A stretch of DNA of 64,000 nt from Patescibacteria group bacterium (lineage in GTDB: Bacteria > Patescibacteriota > Patescibacteriia > UBA9934). Below the pieces are notes generated by a model. It saw only the letters and a program-made list of their open reading frames with translations, was not told where the DNA came from and ran no database searches. How positions within the stretch are numbered: the first letter of the stretch is position 1; every line of letters starts with the position of its first letter. Of the stretch, positions 3,226 through 61,731 are shown in pieces. The translations under genes were made by a program, and so were the position numbers. The stretch is taken from assembly GCA_038064675.1 (NCBI GenBank), contig JBBTSM010000001.1, forward strand, positions 40,446-104,445. The letters are read 5' to 3'.

Positions 3226-3984
3226 ATGACTTCTGATTCTATTGAGCTTCTCGGAAAACTTATTCTCGCTTTTCTTGCGTTATTTGGAGGAAAGGAGCTT
3301 TTTAATAAAATAATCTTTCAAAGGATCGAAAAGGGTGAGCGTATTGGTCGAGATAAGGTAGTTAACAATTACTACAATGTCTCGAGAGTCGGAGATCCTG
3401 ATCTGCTGCTAAGCGAATCGTCCGTCCCTTCGCGTGAACCGGTGTCTGGGGATGATGGTGACCTGGTCCCAGGTGCACTGAAAATTTTAGCAGATGCAGA
3501 CGGCTCTATCATTTTAGTATCGAGCGATATTGAAAAAGTGATCGACTTTTTTGAAAGGGTTTTTAAAGAGAACGGAAATTGGAGAAACGGTCACTGTTTG
3601 ATTATGGGCGCACTCTTTGCGCTAATTTCCCAGAGACATCGAAACCTTGAGTGGCAAGAACATTGCGCCAGCTCTCTCCGTGAACTTTTTCATCAGTGGA
3701 AGGGAAGTGAAGGTTTGATTGTTTCTGCTTTTACCAAAATAAGGCCAAAGGGGGCGAATAACTTTCCAACAGCAAAGAATGGTAGGGATCTGTATGCTAG
3801 GATGCGTTGGTACTATGAATTTTTCTCTTCGATATGTCATCATCACCATCCGGACGCTCTAGTGGCATTGAAATCCATTCGAGACGATAGGGAGATAAAA
3901 GATATATCCGACGATTTGTTTAACAAGACAGTGGCAATGTTTTTTTATGAGATGGTAGGATTCATTAGACTTACAGGAGTATGA
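3226..3984 (+). CDS. Hypothetical protein with an N-terminal hydrophobic helix; first gene of the AT-rich island
   Basis: ATG at 3226 (the track start at 3217 is TTG). No recognisable motifs. Its stop overlaps the next gene's start (ATGA at 3981-3984). GC is much lower than the flanks. Confidence 0.5.
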   Translation: MTSDSIELLGKLILAFLALFGGKELFNKIIFQRIEKGERIGRDKVVNNYYNVSRVGDPDLLLSESSVPSREPVSGDDGDLVPGALKILADADGSIILVSSDIEKVIDFFERVFKENGNWRNGHCLIMGALFALISQRHRNLEWQEHCASSLRELFHQWKGSEGLIVSAFTKIRPKGANNFPTAKNGRDLYARMRWYYEFFSSICHHHHPDALVALKSIRDDREIKDISDDLFNKTVAMFFYEMVGFIRLTGV

Positions 3985-7022: not shown

Positions 7023-7379
7023 ATGGAAAGGAATATTGATTTAACGGGGGTCGCTAAGGATATCGTGGCGTTTCGGGATGAGAGAGATTGGAAGCAATTT
7101 CATAATTTGAAGGATTTGGCGATTTCGTTGGTGTTAGAAGCGGGGGAGGTACTTGAGCATTTTCAGTGGAAGAATGCGGAGGAAATGGCTGCACATGTGC
7201 AGTCGCATAAGGAGGATGTGGCGGATGAGCTTTCTGATACGCTGTATTGGATTTTGCTCATGGCAAATGATCTGAATATCGATCTTGTTGCTGCGTTGGA
7301 GAAGAAGATGGAAAAGAATCGCGCGAAGTATCCGGCGGATAAGGCGAAGGGGAACCATAAGAAATACACAGAACTTTAA
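7023..7379 (+). CDS. MazG-like nucleoside triphosphate pyrophosphohydrolase (small all-alpha NTP-PPase, COG1694-like)
   Basis: EAGEVLEHFQWK...ELSDTLYWILLMANDLNIDL matches the metal-binding EExxE/D helix pair of MazG-type NTP-PPases. Confidence 0.75.
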   Translation: MERNIDLTGVAKDIVAFRDERDWKQFHNLKDLAISLVLEAGEVLEHFQWKNAEEMAAHVQSHKEDVADELSDTLYWILLMANDLNIDLVAALEKKMEKNRAKYPADKAKGNHKKYTEL

Positions 7380-19202: not shown

Positions 19203-19880
19203 ATGCTCACACCAGCTCAAGAAAAACTCTTACAGCAGCTCACCACCAAGCGGGGCAGACGTGAGGCGGAAATGTTTGTGATTGAGGGAGAAAAGTTTGT
19301 TCGCGACGCTGGCGGACTGGTGGAGTTTACGTTTACGCCTGCCGATACCACGAGATTCGCGGAGTACGTTTCCACGGAAACGCCCCAGGCATTTGCTGCT
19401 GTTGCTCGTATTCCAAAAGTCACAATGAAACGGTTTGCGGAATCGGCAACAATTGTTGTGCTCGATGGCGTGCAGGATCCAGGAAATGTTGGAACCATTT
19501 TGCGTGCTGCGCTCGGATTTGGTGCGAGTGTTCTCCTTGTAGAGTCTGCGGAGGTGACGAATCCAAAGGTGGTGCGCGCATCGGCGAGTGCAATTTTGCG
19601 AACACCGTGGATGACCGTGGCCCGAGAAGACGCTGGTGCAATTATTGCATCATTTCACAGGCCAGTGTATCGGCTTGAGTTGCGCGACGGTGCGGTGCTG
19701 CCGGACGAAATTCGCATAGAGCCGTGCGTGGTTGTTGCGGGCAGCGAAGGGAAGGGAATTACGCTTCCTGTTGCGGGAACATCTGTAGCAATTCCACATA
19801 ATCCAGCGCTCGAATCGCTGAACGTTGGTGTTGCAACGTCAATTATTTTGTATGAACGCTCCAAGCAAATCACCGTTTAG
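19203..19880 (+). CDS. SpoU/TrmH-family RNA 2'-O-methyltransferase
   Basis: VLDGVQDPGNVGTILR, GSEGKG and ESLNV motifs of the SPOUT class. Confidence 0.8.
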   Translation: MLTPAQEKLLQQLTTKRGRREAEMFVIEGEKFVRDAGGLVEFTFTPADTTRFAEYVSTETPQAFAAVARIPKVTMKRFAESATIVVLDGVQDPGNVGTILRAALGFGASVLLVESAEVTNPKVVRASASAILRTPWMTVAREDAGAIIASFHRPVYRLELRDGAVLPDEIRIEPCVVVAGSEGKGITLPVAGTSVAIPHNPALESLNVGVATSIILYERSKQITV

Positions 19881-21057
19881 TGTTTTGCAGCAGCATGGCG
19901 CTGCGCGACGGGGCACCTTGAATACCATGCACGGCGTCGTAGAAACGCCGGTGTTTATGCCGATCGCCACGGCTGGTGCGTTAAAGACGTTGTTGCCAAG
20001 CGAGGTGACGAATCTTGGCGCGTCGATTATTTTGGGGAACACGTATCACCTTTTGCTTCGCCCGGGCGAAGAGGAATTGAAGAAGCTCGGCGGCGTTCGA
20101 TCATTTATGCATTGGGACGGTCCGTTGCTGACGGATAGTGGGGGATACCAAGTGTTTAGTTTGTCCAAGTTGAATAAGACAGACGACGATGGCGTAACGT
20201 TTCAGTCACATATCGACGGGAGTTCGCATCGGCTTACTGCGGAACGATCGATGGAAATTCAAGATGCAATTGGTTCGTCCATTCGCATGCAGTTCGACGA
20301 CGTCGCGGCAGGAAATTCGACTCGCGATCGGTACACGGAAGCGATGGAACGATCGCTCCGTTGGGCCGCGCGATCGAAGGCAAAATTTAATGAACTTGTT
20401 TCCACGACAACCCTCCCCCTTACGAAGGGGGAGTTGGAGGGGGTCCGACCATTACTCTTTGGCATCATCCAAGGTGGCACACACCTCGATCTTCGCGCGC
20501 GATCGCTTCAGGGCCTTACTGATATCGGCTTTGATGGATACGCGATTGGCGGACTTTCTGTTGGCGAATCGCGTGAGGACGCATTTCGTATTGTGCGATC
20601 GTTGGCAAAAGAAATGCCAACGGATCGGCCACGATATTTTATGGGCGGTGGAATGCCAGAAGAAATTGTTGCGTATGTTTCGTTTGGTGTGGACATGTTC
20701 GATTGTGTGTTGCCTACACGCAACGCTCGGCACGGATCGTTGTTTGTCTGGAAGGGAAATCCAAAGGATGCAGTTCGCGAGGCGTTTACTCGGGCAATGG
20801 ACGGCGCGGCAGATTTTCGTATCGCGGAAGCGTTGTACGAAAAGATCCAAATCACGAACGAACGATTTACTGCCGACGAAACACCGATTGATTTCTGGAA
20901 TGACGCTGAAACGTCAAAAACGTTTTCTCGGGCGTATCTGCGTCATCTTTTTAAAACCGGTGAAACGCTCGGACTTCGGCTGGCAACACTGCAAAATCTG
21001 GGCTTTTATCTGAGAATGATGGAGGAACTTCGTGAATGCACAGCGAATCCCTTGTGA
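19852..21057 (+). CDS. tgt: Queuine tRNA-ribosyltransferase carrying a roughly 15-aa in-frame insertion (TTLPLTKGELEGVRP)
   Basis: Aligns with E. coli Tgt from GVVETPVFMP through MFDCVLPTRNARHG. The insertion sits before the FGIIQGG block, where E. coli has only GNKNA. Confidence 0.9.
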   Translation: MNAPSKSPFSVLQQHGAARRGTLNTMHGVVETPVFMPIATAGALKTLLPSEVTNLGASIILGNTYHLLLRPGEEELKKLGGVRSFMHWDGPLLTDSGGYQVFSLSKLNKTDDDGVTFQSHIDGSSHRLTAERSMEIQDAIGSSIRMQFDDVAAGNSTRDRYTEAMERSLRWAARSKAKFNELVSTTTLPLTKGELEGVRPLLFGIIQGGTHLDLRARSLQGLTDIGFDGYAIGGLSVGESREDAFRIVRSLAKEMPTDRPRYFMGGGMPEEIVAYVSFGVDMFDCVLPTRNARHGSLFVWKGNPKDAVREAFTRAMDGAADFRIAEALYEKIQITNERFTADETPIDFWNDAETSKTFSRAYLRHLFKTGETLGLRLATLQNLGFYLRMMEELRECTANPL

Positions 21058-35770: not shown

Positions 35771-37744
35771 ATGGTCACTCTCCGTGAACGCGATGGTGGA
35801 ACATATGGGAAACGCCTCCGAATGTTGCGAGGTGTTCTTTTTGCTGTCTTTGGCGTGATTTGGATCCGATTATTCGTGCTTCAGGTGGTTTCTGCCCAGT
35901 TTTATCAAGACATCGCCAACGGGAAATATTCGCTGTACGAAGAGCTGGTTCCAGAACGCGGCAAGATCACCGTTCACGATTTTGATGATTCTACGCCATA
36001 CGACGTGGCAACGAACGAGCCTCGAGCGGTAGTGACTGCGGATCCTCGAAAAATCACGGACGCGACCGACGCGGGTAAACGCATCGCGCAGGCGTTGGGA
36101 TGGGAAGGTGTAGACGAATACGATCGCTACGCGCTGATCGCGAGCCTTGAGGCTCAAGGAAAACAGGACGAAGCCGACTCGCTCCGATCATTGACGGCAT
36201 GTGCTCCCCTTACGAAGGCGCTCGACGAGCCTGAGTTGGGCGAGGAGAGCGTAGTTGGAGGGGGTGTCGACTCCGATGTTGCCGATGTCACTCCGACCCC
36301 ACCCCCCGAACCCGTCGCGGAGTCCGATGAATGCCTTCAGGAAGACGCGAACGTCAAAAAGATTACTGATCTTATCGCGCGTCTTGGAAAGCACGACGAT
36401 CCATATGAGCCGGTCGCCGAGGGTGTCGATGCAGAATCGCTTGATCGGTTGTTGGCTCTGAACATCGACGGCATTTCATATGTCCTCAAGGATTCGCGAT
36501 CGTATCCAGAAAAGGGATTCGGTGGCCATGTACTCGGATTTGTGGGAAAGGACGATTCGGATAACCCAGTGGGGAATTATGGGCTGGAGGGATACTTTAA
36601 TGATTTTCTTTCAGGAAAGCCGGGGGAGATTTCATCTCAGCTCGCGAGTAGAGCATATACCCCAGCGATTGACGGTGGTTCGTTAATGCTGACGATTGAT
36701 CGCACGGTGCAGTACACCGCATGCAAGATGCTTCGCGACGGTGTGCAGCAATATCATGCCGATACCGGCGTGCTCGTTATTGTGGAGCCATCTACGGGAA
36801 GAATCCTCGCGATGTGCGGCAGTCCAGATTTTGACCCAGCAGAGTATTCGAAAGTCGGAAGCATTTCTGATTTTAATAACCAGGCAGTTTTTACGCCGTA
36901 CGAACCGGGATCGATTTTTAAACCGTTTACGCTTGCGGCAGGTATTGATACGGGCGCAATTACGCCAAATACAATTTTCGACGATCCTGGATTTGTAAAA
37001 CTTGATGACCGAACCATTCGCAACGCGCTCCAGAAGTCGTATGGAAAGATTACGATGACCCAGGGTCTTGAAGAATCGGTGAACACCGCAATGGTGTATG
37101 CCATGCAGCGCACCGGAAAAGACACGTTTACGCAGTACGTCAAAAACTTTGGATTTGGAACGCTCACAGGTATCACGCTGAACACAGAAGTTTCAGGAAC
37201 CGTTGCGTTGCTCGATGAACCAGGAATTGTGTATGCCGGCACCGCGAGTTTCGGGCAAGGCATCACAGCAACTCCACTACAGGTTGTGATGGGCTATGCC
37301 GCAATCGCGAACGGCGGAGCGTTGATGGTTCCACAAATTGTGGATCAGATGGAATATTCCGACGGCACCATTGATAAAAAACTGCCAGTAAAAATTCGTC
37401 AGGTTATCGACGCAAAGACTGCGGCCACGGTTGGGGGAATGCTCGTGTCTGTGGTGGAGAATGGCCATGGAAAGCGCGCATCGGTTCCGGGATATTGGAT
37501 TGCAGGTAAAACGGGAACCGCGCAGATTGCTGAAAACGGTGGATATTCAGAGACTGCGTTTAATGGATCGTTTGCAGGATTTGGTCCTGTTGAAGATCCA
37601 AAATTTGCGATGATCGTAAAGCTTTCCAATCCAAAGACCGTCTCCAACCTTGGTGTAGCATGGGGCGAGGCAACTGCCGCTCCAGTGTTTGGTGAAATCG
37701 CAAAGTTCCTTATGCAGTACTACCGCATTCCACCGACGAGGTAG
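35771..37744 (+). CDS. Penicillin-binding protein (class B transpeptidase, PBP2/FtsI-like) with an in-frame repeat-element insertion
   Basis: N-terminal TM helix. SxxK (GSIFKPF), SxN (ESVNTA) and KTGT (AGKTGTAQ) motifs. Insertion APLTKALDEPELGEESVVGGGVDSD... at 36204-36266. Confidence 0.85.
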   Translation: MVTLRERDGGTYGKRLRMLRGVLFAVFGVIWIRLFVLQVVSAQFYQDIANGKYSLYEELVPERGKITVHDFDDSTPYDVATNEPRAVVTADPRKITDATDAGKRIAQALGWEGVDEYDRYALIASLEAQGKQDEADSLRSLTACAPLTKALDEPELGEESVVGGGVDSDVADVTPTPPPEPVAESDECLQEDANVKKITDLIARLGKHDDPYEPVAEGVDAESLDRLLALNIDGISYVLKDSRSYPEKGFGGHVLGFVGKDDSDNPVGNYGLEGYFNDFLSGKPGEISSQLASRAYTPAIDGGSLMLTIDRTVQYTACKMLRDGVQQYHADTGVLVIVEPSTGRILAMCGSPDFDPAEYSKVGSISDFNNQAVFTPYEPGSIFKPFTLAAGIDTGAITPNTIFDDPGFVKLDDRTIRNALQKSYGKITMTQGLEESVNTAMVYAMQRTGKDTFTQYVKNFGFGTLTGITLNTEVSGTVALLDEPGIVYAGTASFGQGITATPLQVVMGYAAIANGGALMVPQIVDQMEYSDGTIDKKLPVKIRQVIDAKTAATVGGMLVSVVENGHGKRASVPGYWIAGKTGTAQIAENGGYSETAFNGSFAGFGPVEDPKFAMIVKLSNPKTVSNLGVAWGEATAAPVFGEIAKFLMQYYRIPPTR

Positions 37745-37756
37745 TCCGTGACAAAG

Positions 37757-37920
37757 CCCTCCCCTTACGAAGGCGCTCGACGAGCTGAAGCGGGTGAGGA
37801 GAGTGAGTTAGGAGGGGTCTGATCGTGAAGTGACCTTGGATGGATGTGATGAGAACGGCAGGAGTGACGCATTATCGGCGACGCTCGTCGAGCCTGAGTT
37901 GGGCGAGGAGGGTGAGGGGT
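37757..37920 (+). repeat. Two intergenic copies of the CCCTCCCCTTACGAAGG / CGCTCG(A/T)CGAGC CTGAGTTGGGCGAGGAG repeat unit also found inside the PBP gene
   Basis: 37757-37820 and 37878-37920 match 36204-36266. Confidence 0.8.
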
Positions 37921-38294
37921 ATTCGATTTCAAACAGGGTGTTTTGTTAACGCAACTCATTTGCGTTAAGAAAACGCTGGTCGATTGTAGCGATCTGCGTG
38001 GTCGGCGATAATGCCAGTTACGATCATTGATCGTGTATTTCTGAAATCGATTTCATTGTTTCTCGATTTCCGGCTCAGATCACATTGTGTTGCTCAGTTT
38101 TAAAGCCTCAAAATTCGAGGGTATCGATTCCTGCCGCAGTACCTCGCACTCCCGGAGTTCACGAGCCCCCTCCTTCTCCCCCATCCCCATCCGGGGACAA
38201 GTAAATGGGGGAGGGCTATCACCATCCCGTCACAACCCCTCAAAGGGTCAGTTGAGGTTCACTTTTCCCCCATTTTCCCCTACACTGCCTGCAT

Positions 38295-39584
38295 ATGAAA
38301 CCCATCGTTATTCGCGTCCTTCGATACTTAGCCAAGCGGCAAATCGCTCAGTTTCACCCAATGGTGATTGCGGTCACGGGAAGCGTGGGGAAGACGAGCA
38401 CCAAGAATGCGATTGCGATTGCGCTGGGTGCAGCATTCGATGTGCGAACGGCGAATAAAAACTACAACAACGAGTTTGGTGTGCCATTGGCGATTATGGG
38501 GGAGATGAGCCCGGGCAAGAATGTGTGGGAGTGGCTGAAGCTTTTTGTACGTCAGTACAACGTGAAGAAATTTCCAACGCATCTTGTTTTGGAATACGGC
38601 GCCGATCGCCCTGGCGACATTCAAGCGTCGTGTGATATTGCCAAGCCGGATGTTGCGGTGATTACGGCAATCTCACCGGTGCATGCATCAAACTACACGA
38701 ACTTCGGCGCGCTTGCGGACGAGAAGGCAACGCTCGGTGACAATGTGAAAGAAGACGGATTGGTCATTTTGAATGCGGACGATCAGACGGTGAACCTCAT
38801 GCGCGATCGCTTCACAGCAACAACGGCAACGTACGGAAAGTCGGGCCGACAGGCGAACATCAAAGATATTTACGTGAAGACGGTACTTAATGACCATTAT
38901 GTGCTGAATGATGTCGCAGTACTGACGAAGGCAGCAATCGAGATTGATGGCGAAACGGTGGACTTGAAGCTTCCGAATTGTTTGGGCGACACGCCGGTGT
39001 TCGCGTGTGCTGCAGCGCTTCTCGTTGCTAAGCATTGCGACGTTCCGTTGAAGAAGGCTGCGAAAGCGCTGAATGAGTCGTTTGCTCCCGCACCTGGGCG
39101 CCTTCGACCGCTTGCCGGGGTGAAAGGCTCGTTGATCCTCGACGATACATACAACGCTGCTCCAGCATCTACCATCGCCGCACTCGACGCTCTCACATTG
39201 TTTACGGCGGATCGACCGGGAAGCCGGCGAATCGCCGCGCTGGGAAAGATGGCAGAGCTTGGGCAATATTCCGAAGCCGAGCATGCAGCAGTCGGTCGTC
39301 GAGTTTCTGAAGTTGCTGATATCTTTGTTGCTACTGGAAGTGAAATGCAGGGTGCCGCCGATGAAGCTGAGCGCATGGGAATGAAGCTGTCGTCAGTAGT
39401 TCGTGTGCACGACGCAGTGGAGGCTGGCCGATGGCTTGATGCGAATGTGAAAGAAGGCGATATCGTCCTCGTGAAAGGCTCCCAAAGTGCGCGCATGGAA
39501 AAAGCGACAAAAGATATCGTCGCAGAGCCGTTGCGCGCATCGGAGCTTTTGGTGCGACAAGAAAAGTATTGGCTGAAGAATTAG
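38295..39584 (+). CDS. murF: Mur ligase family protein, MurF-like (UDP-MurNAc-tripeptide--D-Ala-D-Ala ligase)
   Basis: ATP-binding VIAVTGSVGKTSTK. Mur ligase middle and C-terminal motifs. Confidence 0.8.
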   Translation: MKPIVIRVLRYLAKRQIAQFHPMVIAVTGSVGKTSTKNAIAIALGAAFDVRTANKNYNNEFGVPLAIMGEMSPGKNVWEWLKLFVRQYNVKKFPTHLVLEYGADRPGDIQASCDIAKPDVAVITAISPVHASNYTNFGALADEKATLGDNVKEDGLVILNADDQTVNLMRDRFTATTATYGKSGRQANIKDIYVKTVLNDHYVLNDVAVLTKAAIEIDGETVDLKLPNCLGDTPVFACAAALLVAKHCDVPLKKAAKALNESFAPAPGRLRPLAGVKGSLILDDTYNAAPASTIAALDALTLFTADRPGSRRIAALGKMAELGQYSEAEHAAVGRRVSEVADIFVATGSEMQGAADEAERMGMKLSSVVRVHDAVEAGRWLDANVKEGDIVLVKGSQSARMEKATKDIVAEPLRASELLVRQEKYWLKN

Positions 39585-60084: not shown

Positions 60085-61731
60085 ATGGCCGAAACGCTTT
60101 ACCGAAAATACCGTCCACAGTGCTTTGCGGATGTTGCGGAACAGGAGCACGTTTTACGAACAATTCAGCAGCAGTTGGCAAAGAATACGGTTGCACATGC
60201 GTATCTGTTTTCTGGTCCACGCGGGACGGGAAAAACGACTATCGCCCGATTGCTCGCGAAGGCGCTCAACTGCGAGAACCGCAAGGCGGGGGAGTCGGAG
60301 CCGTGTAACACGTGTTCCTCGTGTACCGACTTTGCGTCGGGCAGATTCATGTCGTGCATCGAGATCGACGCCGCATCGCAAACTGGCGTCGACAATGTTC
60401 GCGATAACATCATCGAGAACGCGCGCTTCGCTCCAAGCCGCGGGTCGTTCAAGGTATTTATTCTCGACGAAGTTCACATGCTTTCCGGTTCGTCATTCAA
60501 CGCGTTATTGAAGACGCTCGAAGAACCGCCGGCACATGCTATTTTCATTCTCGCAACAACCGAGCTTCATAAAATCCCCGCAACCATCGCGTCACGCTGC
60601 CAGCGTTTCGAGTTTCATCGCGTGCCGCCAGTAGTGATGATGCCGCGCCTGAAGAAGATTTCGGAAGCCGAGGGCTTCACGATCGACGACGATGTTCTTG
60701 CGCAGATTGCTCGCTTGAGTGAGGGCTGTTTGCGCGACGCAGAAAGTTTGCTCGGGCAAGTGCTCGCGCTGGGTGAAAAGAACGTCACACTCGCGGTGGC
60801 CTCGTTGGTATTGCCGATGACGAATATTGCCGTTGTTACCGATATCGTCGATGCAGTTGCGGTGAATGATGCGCAAAAGGCGCTGAAAATTGTCGGAACA
60901 TTTGTTGCTGACGGGGGTTCGATAAAACATCTCATCGAAGAGCTTCTTGAATACGTTCGTACGGTGATGTTCGCCGCATTCGGCGACACCACGATGGATG
61001 CGTACGACACGAAGACCGTTGAGCGATTGCGCGCAGCGGGATCGGTATTCGGAGTTTCTCGATCTCAAATGTTCCTCGACGCGCTGTTGTCCGCAAGAAC
61101 GCGATCGAGCTTGCCGGCAATCCCGCAGATCCCACTTGAGATTGCGATTTTGGATGTGTGTTCACCTCCCCCCGACCCCCTCCTTCGAAAGGAGGGGGAG
61201 AGGTCGGCGACATCGCTCCCCCTTACGAAGGGGGAGTCGGAGGGGGTGAAGAGAGCGATTGCCGCTCCCGCCGCCCGAGTGATTCCTGTCCTTCCTCCGT
61301 CACGTGTCATCGAAGAGCCAGCCACCCCAGACGCACCGATTCGATACGACTTTGCACCAATTCAGCAAATGGAATCTGTTGTTGCGGATCAGCCGTCGGG
61401 ATTAGCAGAAGCGCCAATCTTTCCCCTCGAGGAAATCGTGAACAAATGGGAACGGTGTATCGCGATCATCGCAGAAGACAACGTGGCACTTCCGCTCGTT
61501 CTTCGTGGCGCTGTTCCGGTGAAGGTTGAAGGATCGGTGGTGACGATTTCCTGTGCGTACGCGTTTCACGCCGATGCATTGAAAGAAGCAAAAGCAAGAA
61601 CGCTCGTTGAAGATGCGATTGAAAAAGTATTGCAACAGCGCGTAACAATCGTTTCCGTTCATGTTCCCGTAAAAGAAACGAGCGACGCAGTAACAGACTT
61701 CGTCAGTCAGCTCGGCGGGTCTCTTGCATAA
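60085..61731 (+). CDS. dnaX: DNA polymerase III subunit gamma/tau, with two palindromic repeat units inserted in frame in the linker after domain III
   Basis: AHAYLFSGPRGTGKTT, zinc module CxxC...C, ILDEVHMLS and SRCQRF motifs. Insertion SPPPDPLLRKEGERSATSLPLTKGESEGV at 61165-61248. Confidence 0.9.
   Translation: MAETLYRKYRPQCFADVAEQEHVLRTIQQQLAKNTVAHAYLFSGPRGTGKTTIARLLAKALNCENRKAGESEPCNTCSSCTDFASGRFMSCIEIDAASQTGVDNVRDNIIENARFAPSRGSFKVFILDEVHMLSGSSFNALLKTLEEPPAHAIFILATTELHKIPATIASRCQRFEFHRVPPVVMMPRLKKISEAEGFTIDDDVLAQIARLSEGCLRDAESLLGQVLALGEKNVTLAVASLVLPMTNIAVVTDIVDAVAVNDAQKALKIVGTFVADGGSIKHLIEELLEYVRTVMFAAFGDTTMDAYDTKTVERLRAAGSVFGVSRSQMFLDALLSARTRSSLPAIPQIPLEIAILDVCSPPPDPLLRKEGERSATSLPLTKGESEGVKRAIAAPAARVIPVLPPSRVIEEPATPDAPIRYDFAPIQQMESVVADQPSGLAEAPIFPLEEIVNKWERCIAIIAEDNVALPLVLRGAVPVKVEGSVVTISCAYAFHADALKEAKARTLVEDAIEKVLQQRVTIVSVHVPVKETSDAVTDFVSQLGGSLA

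Follow-up and report, generated by a model that had tools for sequence, protein, structure and literature searches.

The dnaX gene within a 64,000-nt stretch of DNA from a Patescibacteria group bacterium (contig JBBTSM010000001.1; "the window" hereafter means this whole stretch) contains an in-frame, G/C-rich element at positions 61163–61248, which is the element under study. We found that this 86-nt element is an inverted pair of two units of one architecture, a B-type unit on the minus strand followed by an A-type unit on the plus strand, B(-)+A(+). It is likely that the pair represents one composite copy of the dispersed BoxC/PIT/intrastrand-triplex repeat, carried by dnaX as baggage and not as a frameshift signal. 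Pairs of the same two subtypes, in this order and orientation, are also found in Andersenbacteria, Magasanikbacteria and Gammaproteobacteria.

The dnaX segment was confirmed to be a real, non-random feature. A triplex-motif finder written for the purpose (stem 8, at most one bad triplet) gave exactly three matches over the 64 kb, one in tgt, one at dnaX unit 2 on the plus strand and one at dnaX unit 1 on the minus strand, compared with none in 30 dinucleotide shuffles used as controls. The 21-nt hairpin of unit 2 is repeated exactly at 20413–20433 in tgt, with none expected from 100 shuffles. An assembly artefact is unlikely, since the identical DnaX protein was found on three contigs, two of them from independent replicate assemblies (ERZ1292628, in which a 149.6-kb groundwater contig from Hainich well H41 includes the window, and ERZ1292630), and the DnaX protein cluster also has an NCBI record, its longest contig there being 177,680 bases.

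Structure of the composite repeat in dnaX

The host gene and the parts of the element are as follows (Y, pyrimidine; R, purine).

60085–61731, plus strand: dnaX, open reading frame (ORF) and host gene, encoding the tau-like clamp-loader subunit of DNA polymerase III (548 aa).
61163–61248, no strand assigned: composite repeat, the inverted pair B(-)+A(+) of two intrastrand-triplex-type motifs, in frame, about residues 360–388.
61163–61198, minus strand: B-type unit (unit 1), CCCCCTCCTT-TCG-AAGGAGGGGG-TCG-GGGGGAGGTG; in plus-strand coordinates, arms at 61176–61185 and 61189–61198 and mirror arm at 61163–61172.
61199–61215, no strand assigned: 17-nt spacer between the units, AGAGGTCGGCGACATCG, whose GGTCG pairs with the CGACC at 61173–61177.
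61216–61248, plus strand: A-type unit (unit 2), CTCCCCCTT-ACG-AAGGGGGAG-TCG-GAGGGGGTG; Y arm at 61216–61224, loop ACG, R arm at 61228–61236, loop TCG, G-rich mirror arm at 61240–61248.

Each unit thus has three arms: a pyrimidine arm and a purine arm, separated by a 3-nt loop, and, after another 3-nt loop, a G-rich arm mirroring the purine arm. The units measure 33–38 nt. The hairpin stem comprises 9 + 9 nt around the loop ACG in the A unit and 10 + 10 nt around the loop TCG in the B unit, whose hairpin reads CCCCCTCCTT-CGA-AAGGAGGGGG on the plus strand (61176–61198). In both units, the terminal A of the purine arm is matched by a T in the mirror arm. Were the third arm to fold antiparallel onto the purine arm, the mirror pattern would give G.G-C, A.A-T and T.A-T triplets, and each unit, as single-stranded DNA, could fold into a purine-motif triplex. 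These allowed triplets occupy 8/9 positions in the A unit, 9/10 in the B unit and 8/9 in the tgt copy.

A first reading, made from the sequence alone, had described two adjacent palindromes of different types at 61165–61248. The 10-nt-arm palindrome of unit 1 and the hairpin of unit 2 are present inside the dnaX ORF as it described them, with the correction that the element begins at 61163. The mirror-repeat third arm, which defines the family, had been missed in that reading, and the two palindromes are not different types: they belong to one family as its A and B subtypes, arranged in a stereotyped inverted pair.

Folding of the mRNA segment had been suggested as a check in the same reading. 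As an RNA single strand, the segment 61150–61265 gave a single hairpin, long and imperfect, at -62.7 kcal/mol (z -4.0), and none of 200 shuffles folded as well; the ViennaRNA folding used here represents Watson–Crick pairing only. Unit 1 being a diverged copy of unit 2 in inverse orientation, a single long hairpin extends across both. A second RNA helix, between the G-box and a C-rich box further downstream, was also considered and rejected, as the C-rich box is the mirror arm of an inverted neighbouring unit. An Rfam search in E-value mode of the dnaX and 38-kb regions returned only sub-threshold miRNA-like hairpin noise (the best score was 25.3 bits, the gathering score being 137), and at the gathering threshold 12 foreign loci gave tRNAs only.

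The dnaX linker across orthologs

The Pfam domains of DnaX are DNA_pol3_delta2, AAA, DNAX_ATPase_lid and DNA_pol3_gamma3, the last of which is domain III (residues 249–368). Directly after this domain the element is read in frame as ...SPPPDPLLRKEGERSATSLPLTKGESEGV..., and the full-length DnaX reading frame through the element includes the peptide SLPLTKGESEGV. In the AlphaFold model, pLDDT is below 50 at residues 369–441 and averages about 60 at residues 361–370, where the insert starts, and this segment separates a confidently modelled domain III, with its last long helix ending at residue 359, from a confident C-terminal domain (445–545). The low AlphaFold confidence suggests that the dnaX copy lies in a disordered, permissive linker. 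Among 41 orthologs, the linker bounded by ...PLEIA and ...RYDF is hypervariable, both in its length and in its sequence, even in the closest ones (86–90% identical overall by BLASTP). In the BLASTP listing, more distant orthologs carry the name Candidatus Uhrbacteria, and others are named DNA polymerase III subunit gamma/tau of Patescibacteria.

The ORF, the Pfam domains and the ortholog alignment therefore bear out the original placement of the units, in frame, in a variable linker after domain III. The alignment also agrees with their having been inserted there, as the closest orthologs, P0002–P0006 (88–90% identical by BLASTP), lack the units; P-numbers denote DnaX ortholog proteins and L-numbers sampled genomic loci. 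At the DNA level, units of the family were found in 6 of the 9 sampled ortholog linkers, in various variants and orientations.

Window linker: B(-)+A(+).
L006 and L126 linkers: a (-)(+) pair of other variants; in L006, one nested hairpin is identical to the window's 38166–38213.
L004 linker: a decayed (-) unit and an A unit with arms and loop identical to the window's; the 2-nt spacer alone differs.
L005 linker: a single A(+) unit with one mismatch.
L127 linker: a single A(-) unit.
L003 and L124 linkers: no unit.
L125 linker: a different hairpin repeat (IPAQAGIH).

The L125 repeat, at about 7160–7190 in the dnaX linker of P0016 and present also in P0013, is the palindrome CCCCGC-GCAG-GCGGGG, read as IPAQAGIH or IPAMAGIH. 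As it occupies the same linker, the dnaX linker accepts more than one repeat family.

In a rough neighbour-joining tree, bearers and non-bearers of the units were intermingled within the tight clade of closest orthologs. The leaf tags of this tree were derived from a peptide regular expression and some of them are wrong (the B unit of P0001 went unflagged); the DNA-level reading of the linkers takes precedence. The intermingling fits the unstable local presence/absence that Holder et al. (2015, PMC4666352) report for such motifs, and the pattern is compatible either with an old insertion followed by repeated loss or with repeated gain.

The sequence-only reading had taken the two adjacent units as a sign that one permissive site was hit repeatedly, that is, by two independent insertions of different palindromic mobile elements. 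The stem sequences of the two hairpins do differ, the ortholog linkers hold varied units, and single units can occur in the linker, since L005 and L127 carry one each. Both units are of one architecture, however, and one composite element is more likely than two hits, because the B(-)+A(+) pair recurs in unrelated genomes and because the inverted BoxC/TMECO pairs of Escherichia coli always combine a type A with a type B motif. Recurrent occupancy of the linker is thus upheld by the orthologs, but an origin of the window's own pair in two insertions is unlikely.

In E. coli, the -1 frameshift in dnaX takes place at A AAA AAG, assisted by a downstream stem-loop and an upstream Shine–Dalgarno (SD) sequence, and the gamma subunit ends just after domain III; in Thermus, transcriptional slippage is used instead. 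A programmed frameshift or pause at the element, leading to a shorter gamma-like product, had been raised in the sequence-only reading, and the element does resemble the E. coli site: both belong to dnaX and follow domain III at much the same place, and a strong stem-loop and SD-like sequences are present. The long mRNA hairpin that may form is very stable, SD-like AAGGAGG motifs lie inside the element, its position just past domain III corresponds to the end of E. coli gamma, and the +1 frame stops at 61247–61249, directly after unit 2. That TGA is not part of the element's own sequence, however, being missing in the tgt copy and in L005. Unlike the E. coli site, the element lacks a slippery heptamer and an immediate -1 stop, and it is not conserved in close orthologs. 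The only in-frame X_XXY_YYZ heptamer in dnaX is G_GGA_AAA at 60228 (P-loop), about 900 nt upstream of the element, no A run was found in dnaX, and the -1 frame, entered anywhere in the element, remains open for 95–120 codons. Programmed frameshifting is unsupported, because there is neither a slippery site nor a quick -1 stop; moreover, the closest orthologs are entirely without the element, and the same element occurs in many unrelated genes. Recoding or pausing of this kind is extremely improbable.

The structure could also be under selection at dnaX for another reason, as a replication or transcription pause or as an mRNA stability or processing element. This would be consistent with the occupancy of most sampled linkers, with the restriction of motifs to the dnaX linker in the ~20-kb dnaX neighbourhoods of L004 and L006, and with the stems, which vary between orthologs while the hairpin and mirror-arm complementarity is kept. 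On the other hand, the element is dispensable, since very close orthologs (88–90% identical) lack any unit; units are also found in many other genes and between genes, and PIT elements are reported to have no promoter or terminator activity in E. coli (PMC4666352). We consider selection of the structure at dnaX quite improbable. The element in DnaX is most likely neutral or slightly costly baggage, and for this protein the results indicate a tolerated expansion of the linker and give no evidence of recoding.

The repeat family, its relatives and DUF559 nuclease genes

When one genome per species was scanned with the A-unit core, at least 116 stretches from many phyla were matched. Among the matches listed were Planctomycetota, Gamma- and Deltaproteobacteria, Bacteroidota, Cyanobacteria, Nitrospirae, Abditibacteriales and several Patescibacteria lineages, and they included the isolate Aquisphaera insulae (Planctomycetota) and also Marinomonas aquiplantarum (a proteobacterium). 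At least 128 copies share YCT-CCCCCTT-NNN-AAGGGGGAG-NN-GGAGGGGG-T, in which the stems are invariant and NNN and NN are variable. The boundaries of these copies are sharp and their flanks unrelated, and the variable loops tend to be genome-specific. The element is not phage-borne, since the IMG/VR viral contigs gave a single match.

At least 10 further stem variants were found in the same loci, and in each of them the downstream G-rich arm obeys the mirror rule. For arms in which the two are distinguishable, a mirror repeat was preferred over a direct repeat, in 27/54 versus 0/54 cases for the arms AAGGAGGG and AGGAGGGG, and in 30 versus 6 cases for AAGGGGAG; a score of about 50% is the ceiling, because every palindrome was scored on both strands. 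To judge from the sequences, such three-way covariation of the arms is the signature of a class II intrastrand triplex motif.

Holder et al. (2015, PMC4666352) define the class II motif as a Y arm, a loop, an R arm, a 3-nt loop and a reverse-Hoogsteen arm, and the names BoxC, PIT and TMECO all cover such motifs (Bachellier 1990s and Hoyne 2000, via PMC4666352). That survey counted 3610 TMECO copies in 262 proteobacterial genomes and many G/C-rich motifs in cyanobacteria. It reported that the stems are better conserved than the loops, that the five inverted pairs of E. coli K-12 each combine type A with type B, that the E. coli motif is always intergenic, and that the TMECO single strand folds as a triplex (circular dichroism and nuclear magnetic resonance). 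The window units have a hairpin with stems of about 8–10 nt and a short loop, they form a pair of two subtypes, and their third arm, as read from the sequence, is an antiparallel mirror arm behind a loop of 1–6 nt. They have in common with BoxC/PIT/TMECO the three-arm layout with a mirror arm of 8–10 nt, the G/C-rich composition, conserved stems and variable loops, inverted pairs of two subtypes, many dispersed copies, and the presence/absence instability.

The differences lie in sequence, host range and location. The TMECO consensus, CCCTCNCCC N3-6 GGGNGAGGG N3 GGGNGAGGG, had no match in the window, where the stems are CTCCCCCTT and CCCCCTCCTT in place of CCCTCNCCC, but the exact consensus was found in five foreign loci that also bear an A unit, including Andersenbacteria and Gemmatales. 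As the TMECO consensus is absent from the window and present in these co-bearing loci, the dnaX units are a new sequence variant of the known architecture. TMECO has been reported from proteobacteria, and further G/C-rich motifs from cyanobacteria; here the range of the family extends beyond these groups to Patescibacteria, Planctomycetota, Bacteroidota and others. Unlike the intergenic E. coli motif, the copies described here also occupy housekeeping genes in frame, dnaX and tgt among them.

The tgt copy illustrates residence in a coding sequence.

20413–20445, plus strand: second A-type unit of the window, in frame in tgt, TLPLTKGELEGV, found by the motif finder and carrying the exact copy of the unit 2 hairpin.

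This unit adds 11 residues compared with the TGT of Zymomonas mobilis and is absent from 41/41 closest orthologs. The tgt DNA was compared with that of L123, a relative with an 88% identical TGT and an empty site, and showed a clean gain of 30 nt; at the sequence level, the tgt unit is thereby shown to be a recent gain. Four Patescibacteria copies have CGAC 8 nt upstream of their Y arm, and we considered it as a target motif; this idea was dropped, because CGAC is already present in the empty tgt site and the association is not general across phyla.

Elsewhere, in-frame A units were found in UvrA (Aquisphaera, and also L122), MnmG, a class I aminoacyl-tRNA synthetase, a GH116 enzyme and a MeaB–MCM fusion. 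They occur between the exonuclease domains of PolA, between the N-terminal and catalytic domains of ArgRS in another Hainich metagenome-assembled genome, and between the G domain and domain 2 of LepA. By our own reading of its sequence, the A unit is open in 5/6 frames, the commonest peptides being LPLxKGExEGV and, for the inverted unit, PLxLPLxKGE. Three of the four intact units of the window lie inside ORFs, in frame.

In several Gemmatales loci (L045, L054, L068, L081, L108, L119 and others), the purine arm on the opposite strand runs into a start codon (AAGGGGGAGAGAATG...), placing the motif in 5' leaders with the purine arm positioned like an SD sequence. The same loci have a conserved AACCCCACCCA box about 25 nt from the motif.

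Three other kinds of repeat bear comparison. Like REP (repetitive extragenic palindromic)/REPIN–RAYT systems, the family consists of short palindromes, forms inverted doublets that can give a long hairpin, and has many orphan copies and a single-copy enzyme gene bracketed by repeats (described below), with a copy number apparently tied to the presence of that gene. The GTAG/CGTC tag of REPs was found in none of the at least 128 aligned copies, whose 5' and 3' flanks are YCT and T. In contrast to REPs, which are extragenic by definition, the units have a third mirror arm and also occur inside genes, and the associated gene encodes a DUF559 PD-(D/E)xK fold, unlike RAYT, which is a Y1 HUH transposase. 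Among the 116 matches listed, no RAYT gene was flanked by the repeats, and DUF559 was the sole repeat-adjacent family. Nor does the family show the terminal inverted repeats and target-site duplication of miniature inverted-repeat transposable elements, the tgt gain being a clean 30 nt for a 33-nt unit. Rickettsia palindromic elements, reportedly described by Ogata and co-workers in 2000, are said to be palindromic repeats lying in frame in conserved genes. Compared by description, our units resemble them in adding an extra peptide at permissive sites of conserved genes; they differ in being 33–38 nt long instead of about 100–150 bp, in crossing phyla instead of being confined to Rickettsia and close relatives, and in having a mirror arm. 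Small dispersed repeats are also said to have been described in cyanobacteria, by Elhai in 2008.

When the ORFs of the 116 motif-centred matches listed were clustered, the only recurrent neighbour was an ORF of 123–145 aa encoding a DUF559 (Vsr-like PD-(D/E)xK) protein, and all six such genes had a motif hairpin within 0–77 nt. In L059 (Magasanikbacteria), the DUF559 gene is bracketed by a 162-nt direct repeat with three hairpins on each side. An independent set of 80 metagenomic loci was chosen by DUF559 protein similarity only, using a profile of three DUF559 sequences. A class II motif was present within 150 nt of the DUF559 gene in 58/80 of these loci, and the motif density was 5.07 per kb near DUF559 and 0.14 per kb farther away, a 36-fold enrichment; among control ORFs in the same loci, 1/30 had a motif, at a density of 0.11 per kb. 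The flanks have a regular layout, with a (+) unit about 20–50 nt upstream and a (-) unit about 8–20 nt downstream, the mirror arms facing the gene. An outer unit of the other subtype is often added, which makes each flank a (-)(+) pair like that of dnaX. Against the PDB, DUF559 matched 3HRL (endonuclease-like protein, E = 1.3e-18) and, weakly, 3R3P (mobile-intron protein, E = 1.2e-3). For BoxC/PIT/TMECO no nuclease-gene link has been reported, and the searchable literature on DUF559 contains no link to repeats.

DUF559 loci: L130–L209, L015, L039, L048, L059, L064 and L082; E. coli L129, 3200–3761.

Two of the loci had additional features. In L064, a DUF559 domain (3466–3828, minus strand) lies in frame between MeaB and methylmalonyl-CoA mutase parts of a stop-to-stop ORF of 1302 codons, which also has an in-frame A unit at codon 205. 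In L177, a tandem array at 97–2068, with a period of about 102 nt and alternating (+)/(-) motifs, adjoins the DUF559 gene.

In E. coli K-12, the DUF559 gene is ycjD, and the distance between it and TMECO #9 (Holder's Table 1, PMC4666352) is 168 nt. The 3' end of ycjD is overlapped by a degenerate motif, and a duplicated 3' fragment of ycjD lies between the gene and TMECO #9. The ycjD region was present at at least 80% coverage in 3377 of 5426 complete E. coli genomes. According to a 2026 report (PMC12817139), on which the absence of ycjD from phylogroup B2 rests, ycjD is found in phylogroups A, B1 and C, and eef-carrying assemblies have the eef operon at that site, with examples shown from B2, D and E.

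Across phylogroups, the number of TMECO copies in E. coli follows the presence of ycjD.

The phylogroups of Holder's strains are those that we take them to belong to. On these presumed assignments, the supplement of Holder et al. (PMC4666352) gives 13–30 TMECO per genome for A/B1/C strains, 6–15 for D/E/F strains and 1–2 for B2 strains, with no entry for strain 536.

From these results we propose that the element is gained and lost by a process that would act at the DNA level, and that coding copies would persist only if they are free of stops, keep the frame and sit in a permissive loop or linker. The DUF559 nuclease, whose genes are bracketed by the motif, may maintain or spread the family much as RAYT does with REPs, which we regard as a serious possibility falling somewhat short of probable. 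The direction of causation and the biochemistry of the DUF559–motif link, as well as a DUF559 gene in this genome, are putative. More broadly, and tentatively, BoxC/PIT/triplex repeats and DUF559 (YcjD-like, Vsr-fold) nucleases could constitute an unrecognised cross-phylum pairing of a nuclease with non-autonomous repeats, the orphans of which would colonise essential genes in frame. Such a pairing would be a counterpart of RAYT/REPIN that uses another enzyme fold and a DNA structure with three arms, the hairpin and the mirror arm.

Several points weigh against our overall explanation of the element and its family. No DUF559 homolog was found in the 64-kb window or in 10 kb beyond it, and no target-site duplication is visible at tgt when the filled site is compared with the empty one. 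The adjacency of DUF559 and the motif could mean that the gene targets or lands in motif clusters and does not spread them. The E. coli copy-number correlation comprises few independent evolutionary events, is confounded by phylogeny and uses presumed phylogroups. The pair in the orthologs P0007, P0008, P0009 and P0015 and in the window could go back to a single old insertion that serves some purpose particular to dnaX, instead of being neutral baggage. In the 2015 survey (PMC4666352), no transposase or integrase was found near the E. coli motifs, and the triplex was unseen in double-stranded DNA and in in vivo dimethyl sulfate footprinting.

The origin, spread and function of BoxC/PIT have been unassigned since the 1990s, and the 2015 survey (PMC4666352) found no mobility gene nearby; the DUF559 link makes this old descriptive puzzle testable in E. 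coli K-12. As far as the searchable literature shows, both this link and the in-frame residence in essential genes across phyla are unreported. The in-frame units add 10–30 residues to loops and linkers of essential proteins, which bears on protein annotation, on protein insertions in candidate phyla and on alignment-based phylogenomics.

Other units and remnants in the window

The sequence-only reading had placed unit 2 of dnaX in one family with insertions in tgt and in a penicillin-binding protein (PBP) gene. The tgt copy belongs there, having the exact 21-nt hairpin. The "PBP insertion" (about 36250–36310, in the PBP2/FtsI-like ORF 35771–37744) was rejected as a member: it is a degenerate remnant that folds no better than shuffles (z -0.07), and it was unseen by the motif finder. 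The remnant, GTTGGAGGGGGTG ... CACTCCGACCCCACCCCCCGA, resembles a pair that has lost its hairpins and kept its two outer mirror arms.

The TGT protein of the window (tgt, 19852–21057) is without the zinc-site CxCxxC, reading DFWNDAETSKTFSRAYLRHL where Z. mobilis TGT has DSECHCAVCQKFSRAYIHHL. Ahead of the zinc-site region it has an extra segment of about 28 residues; residues about 303–331 and about 340–350 are concerned.

A fourth unit of the family lies between ORFs.

38166–38213, minus strand: family unit with stem 7 and no mismatch, and a 24-nt first loop containing a nested small hairpin.

The nested hairpin is CCCC-ATCC-GGGG, the same nested variant as in the L006 dnaX linker. The unit sits between the PBP gene and the next ORF (38295–39584), and within that same 550-nt gap decayed motif remnants can be seen by eye at 37756–37815 and 37890–37925.

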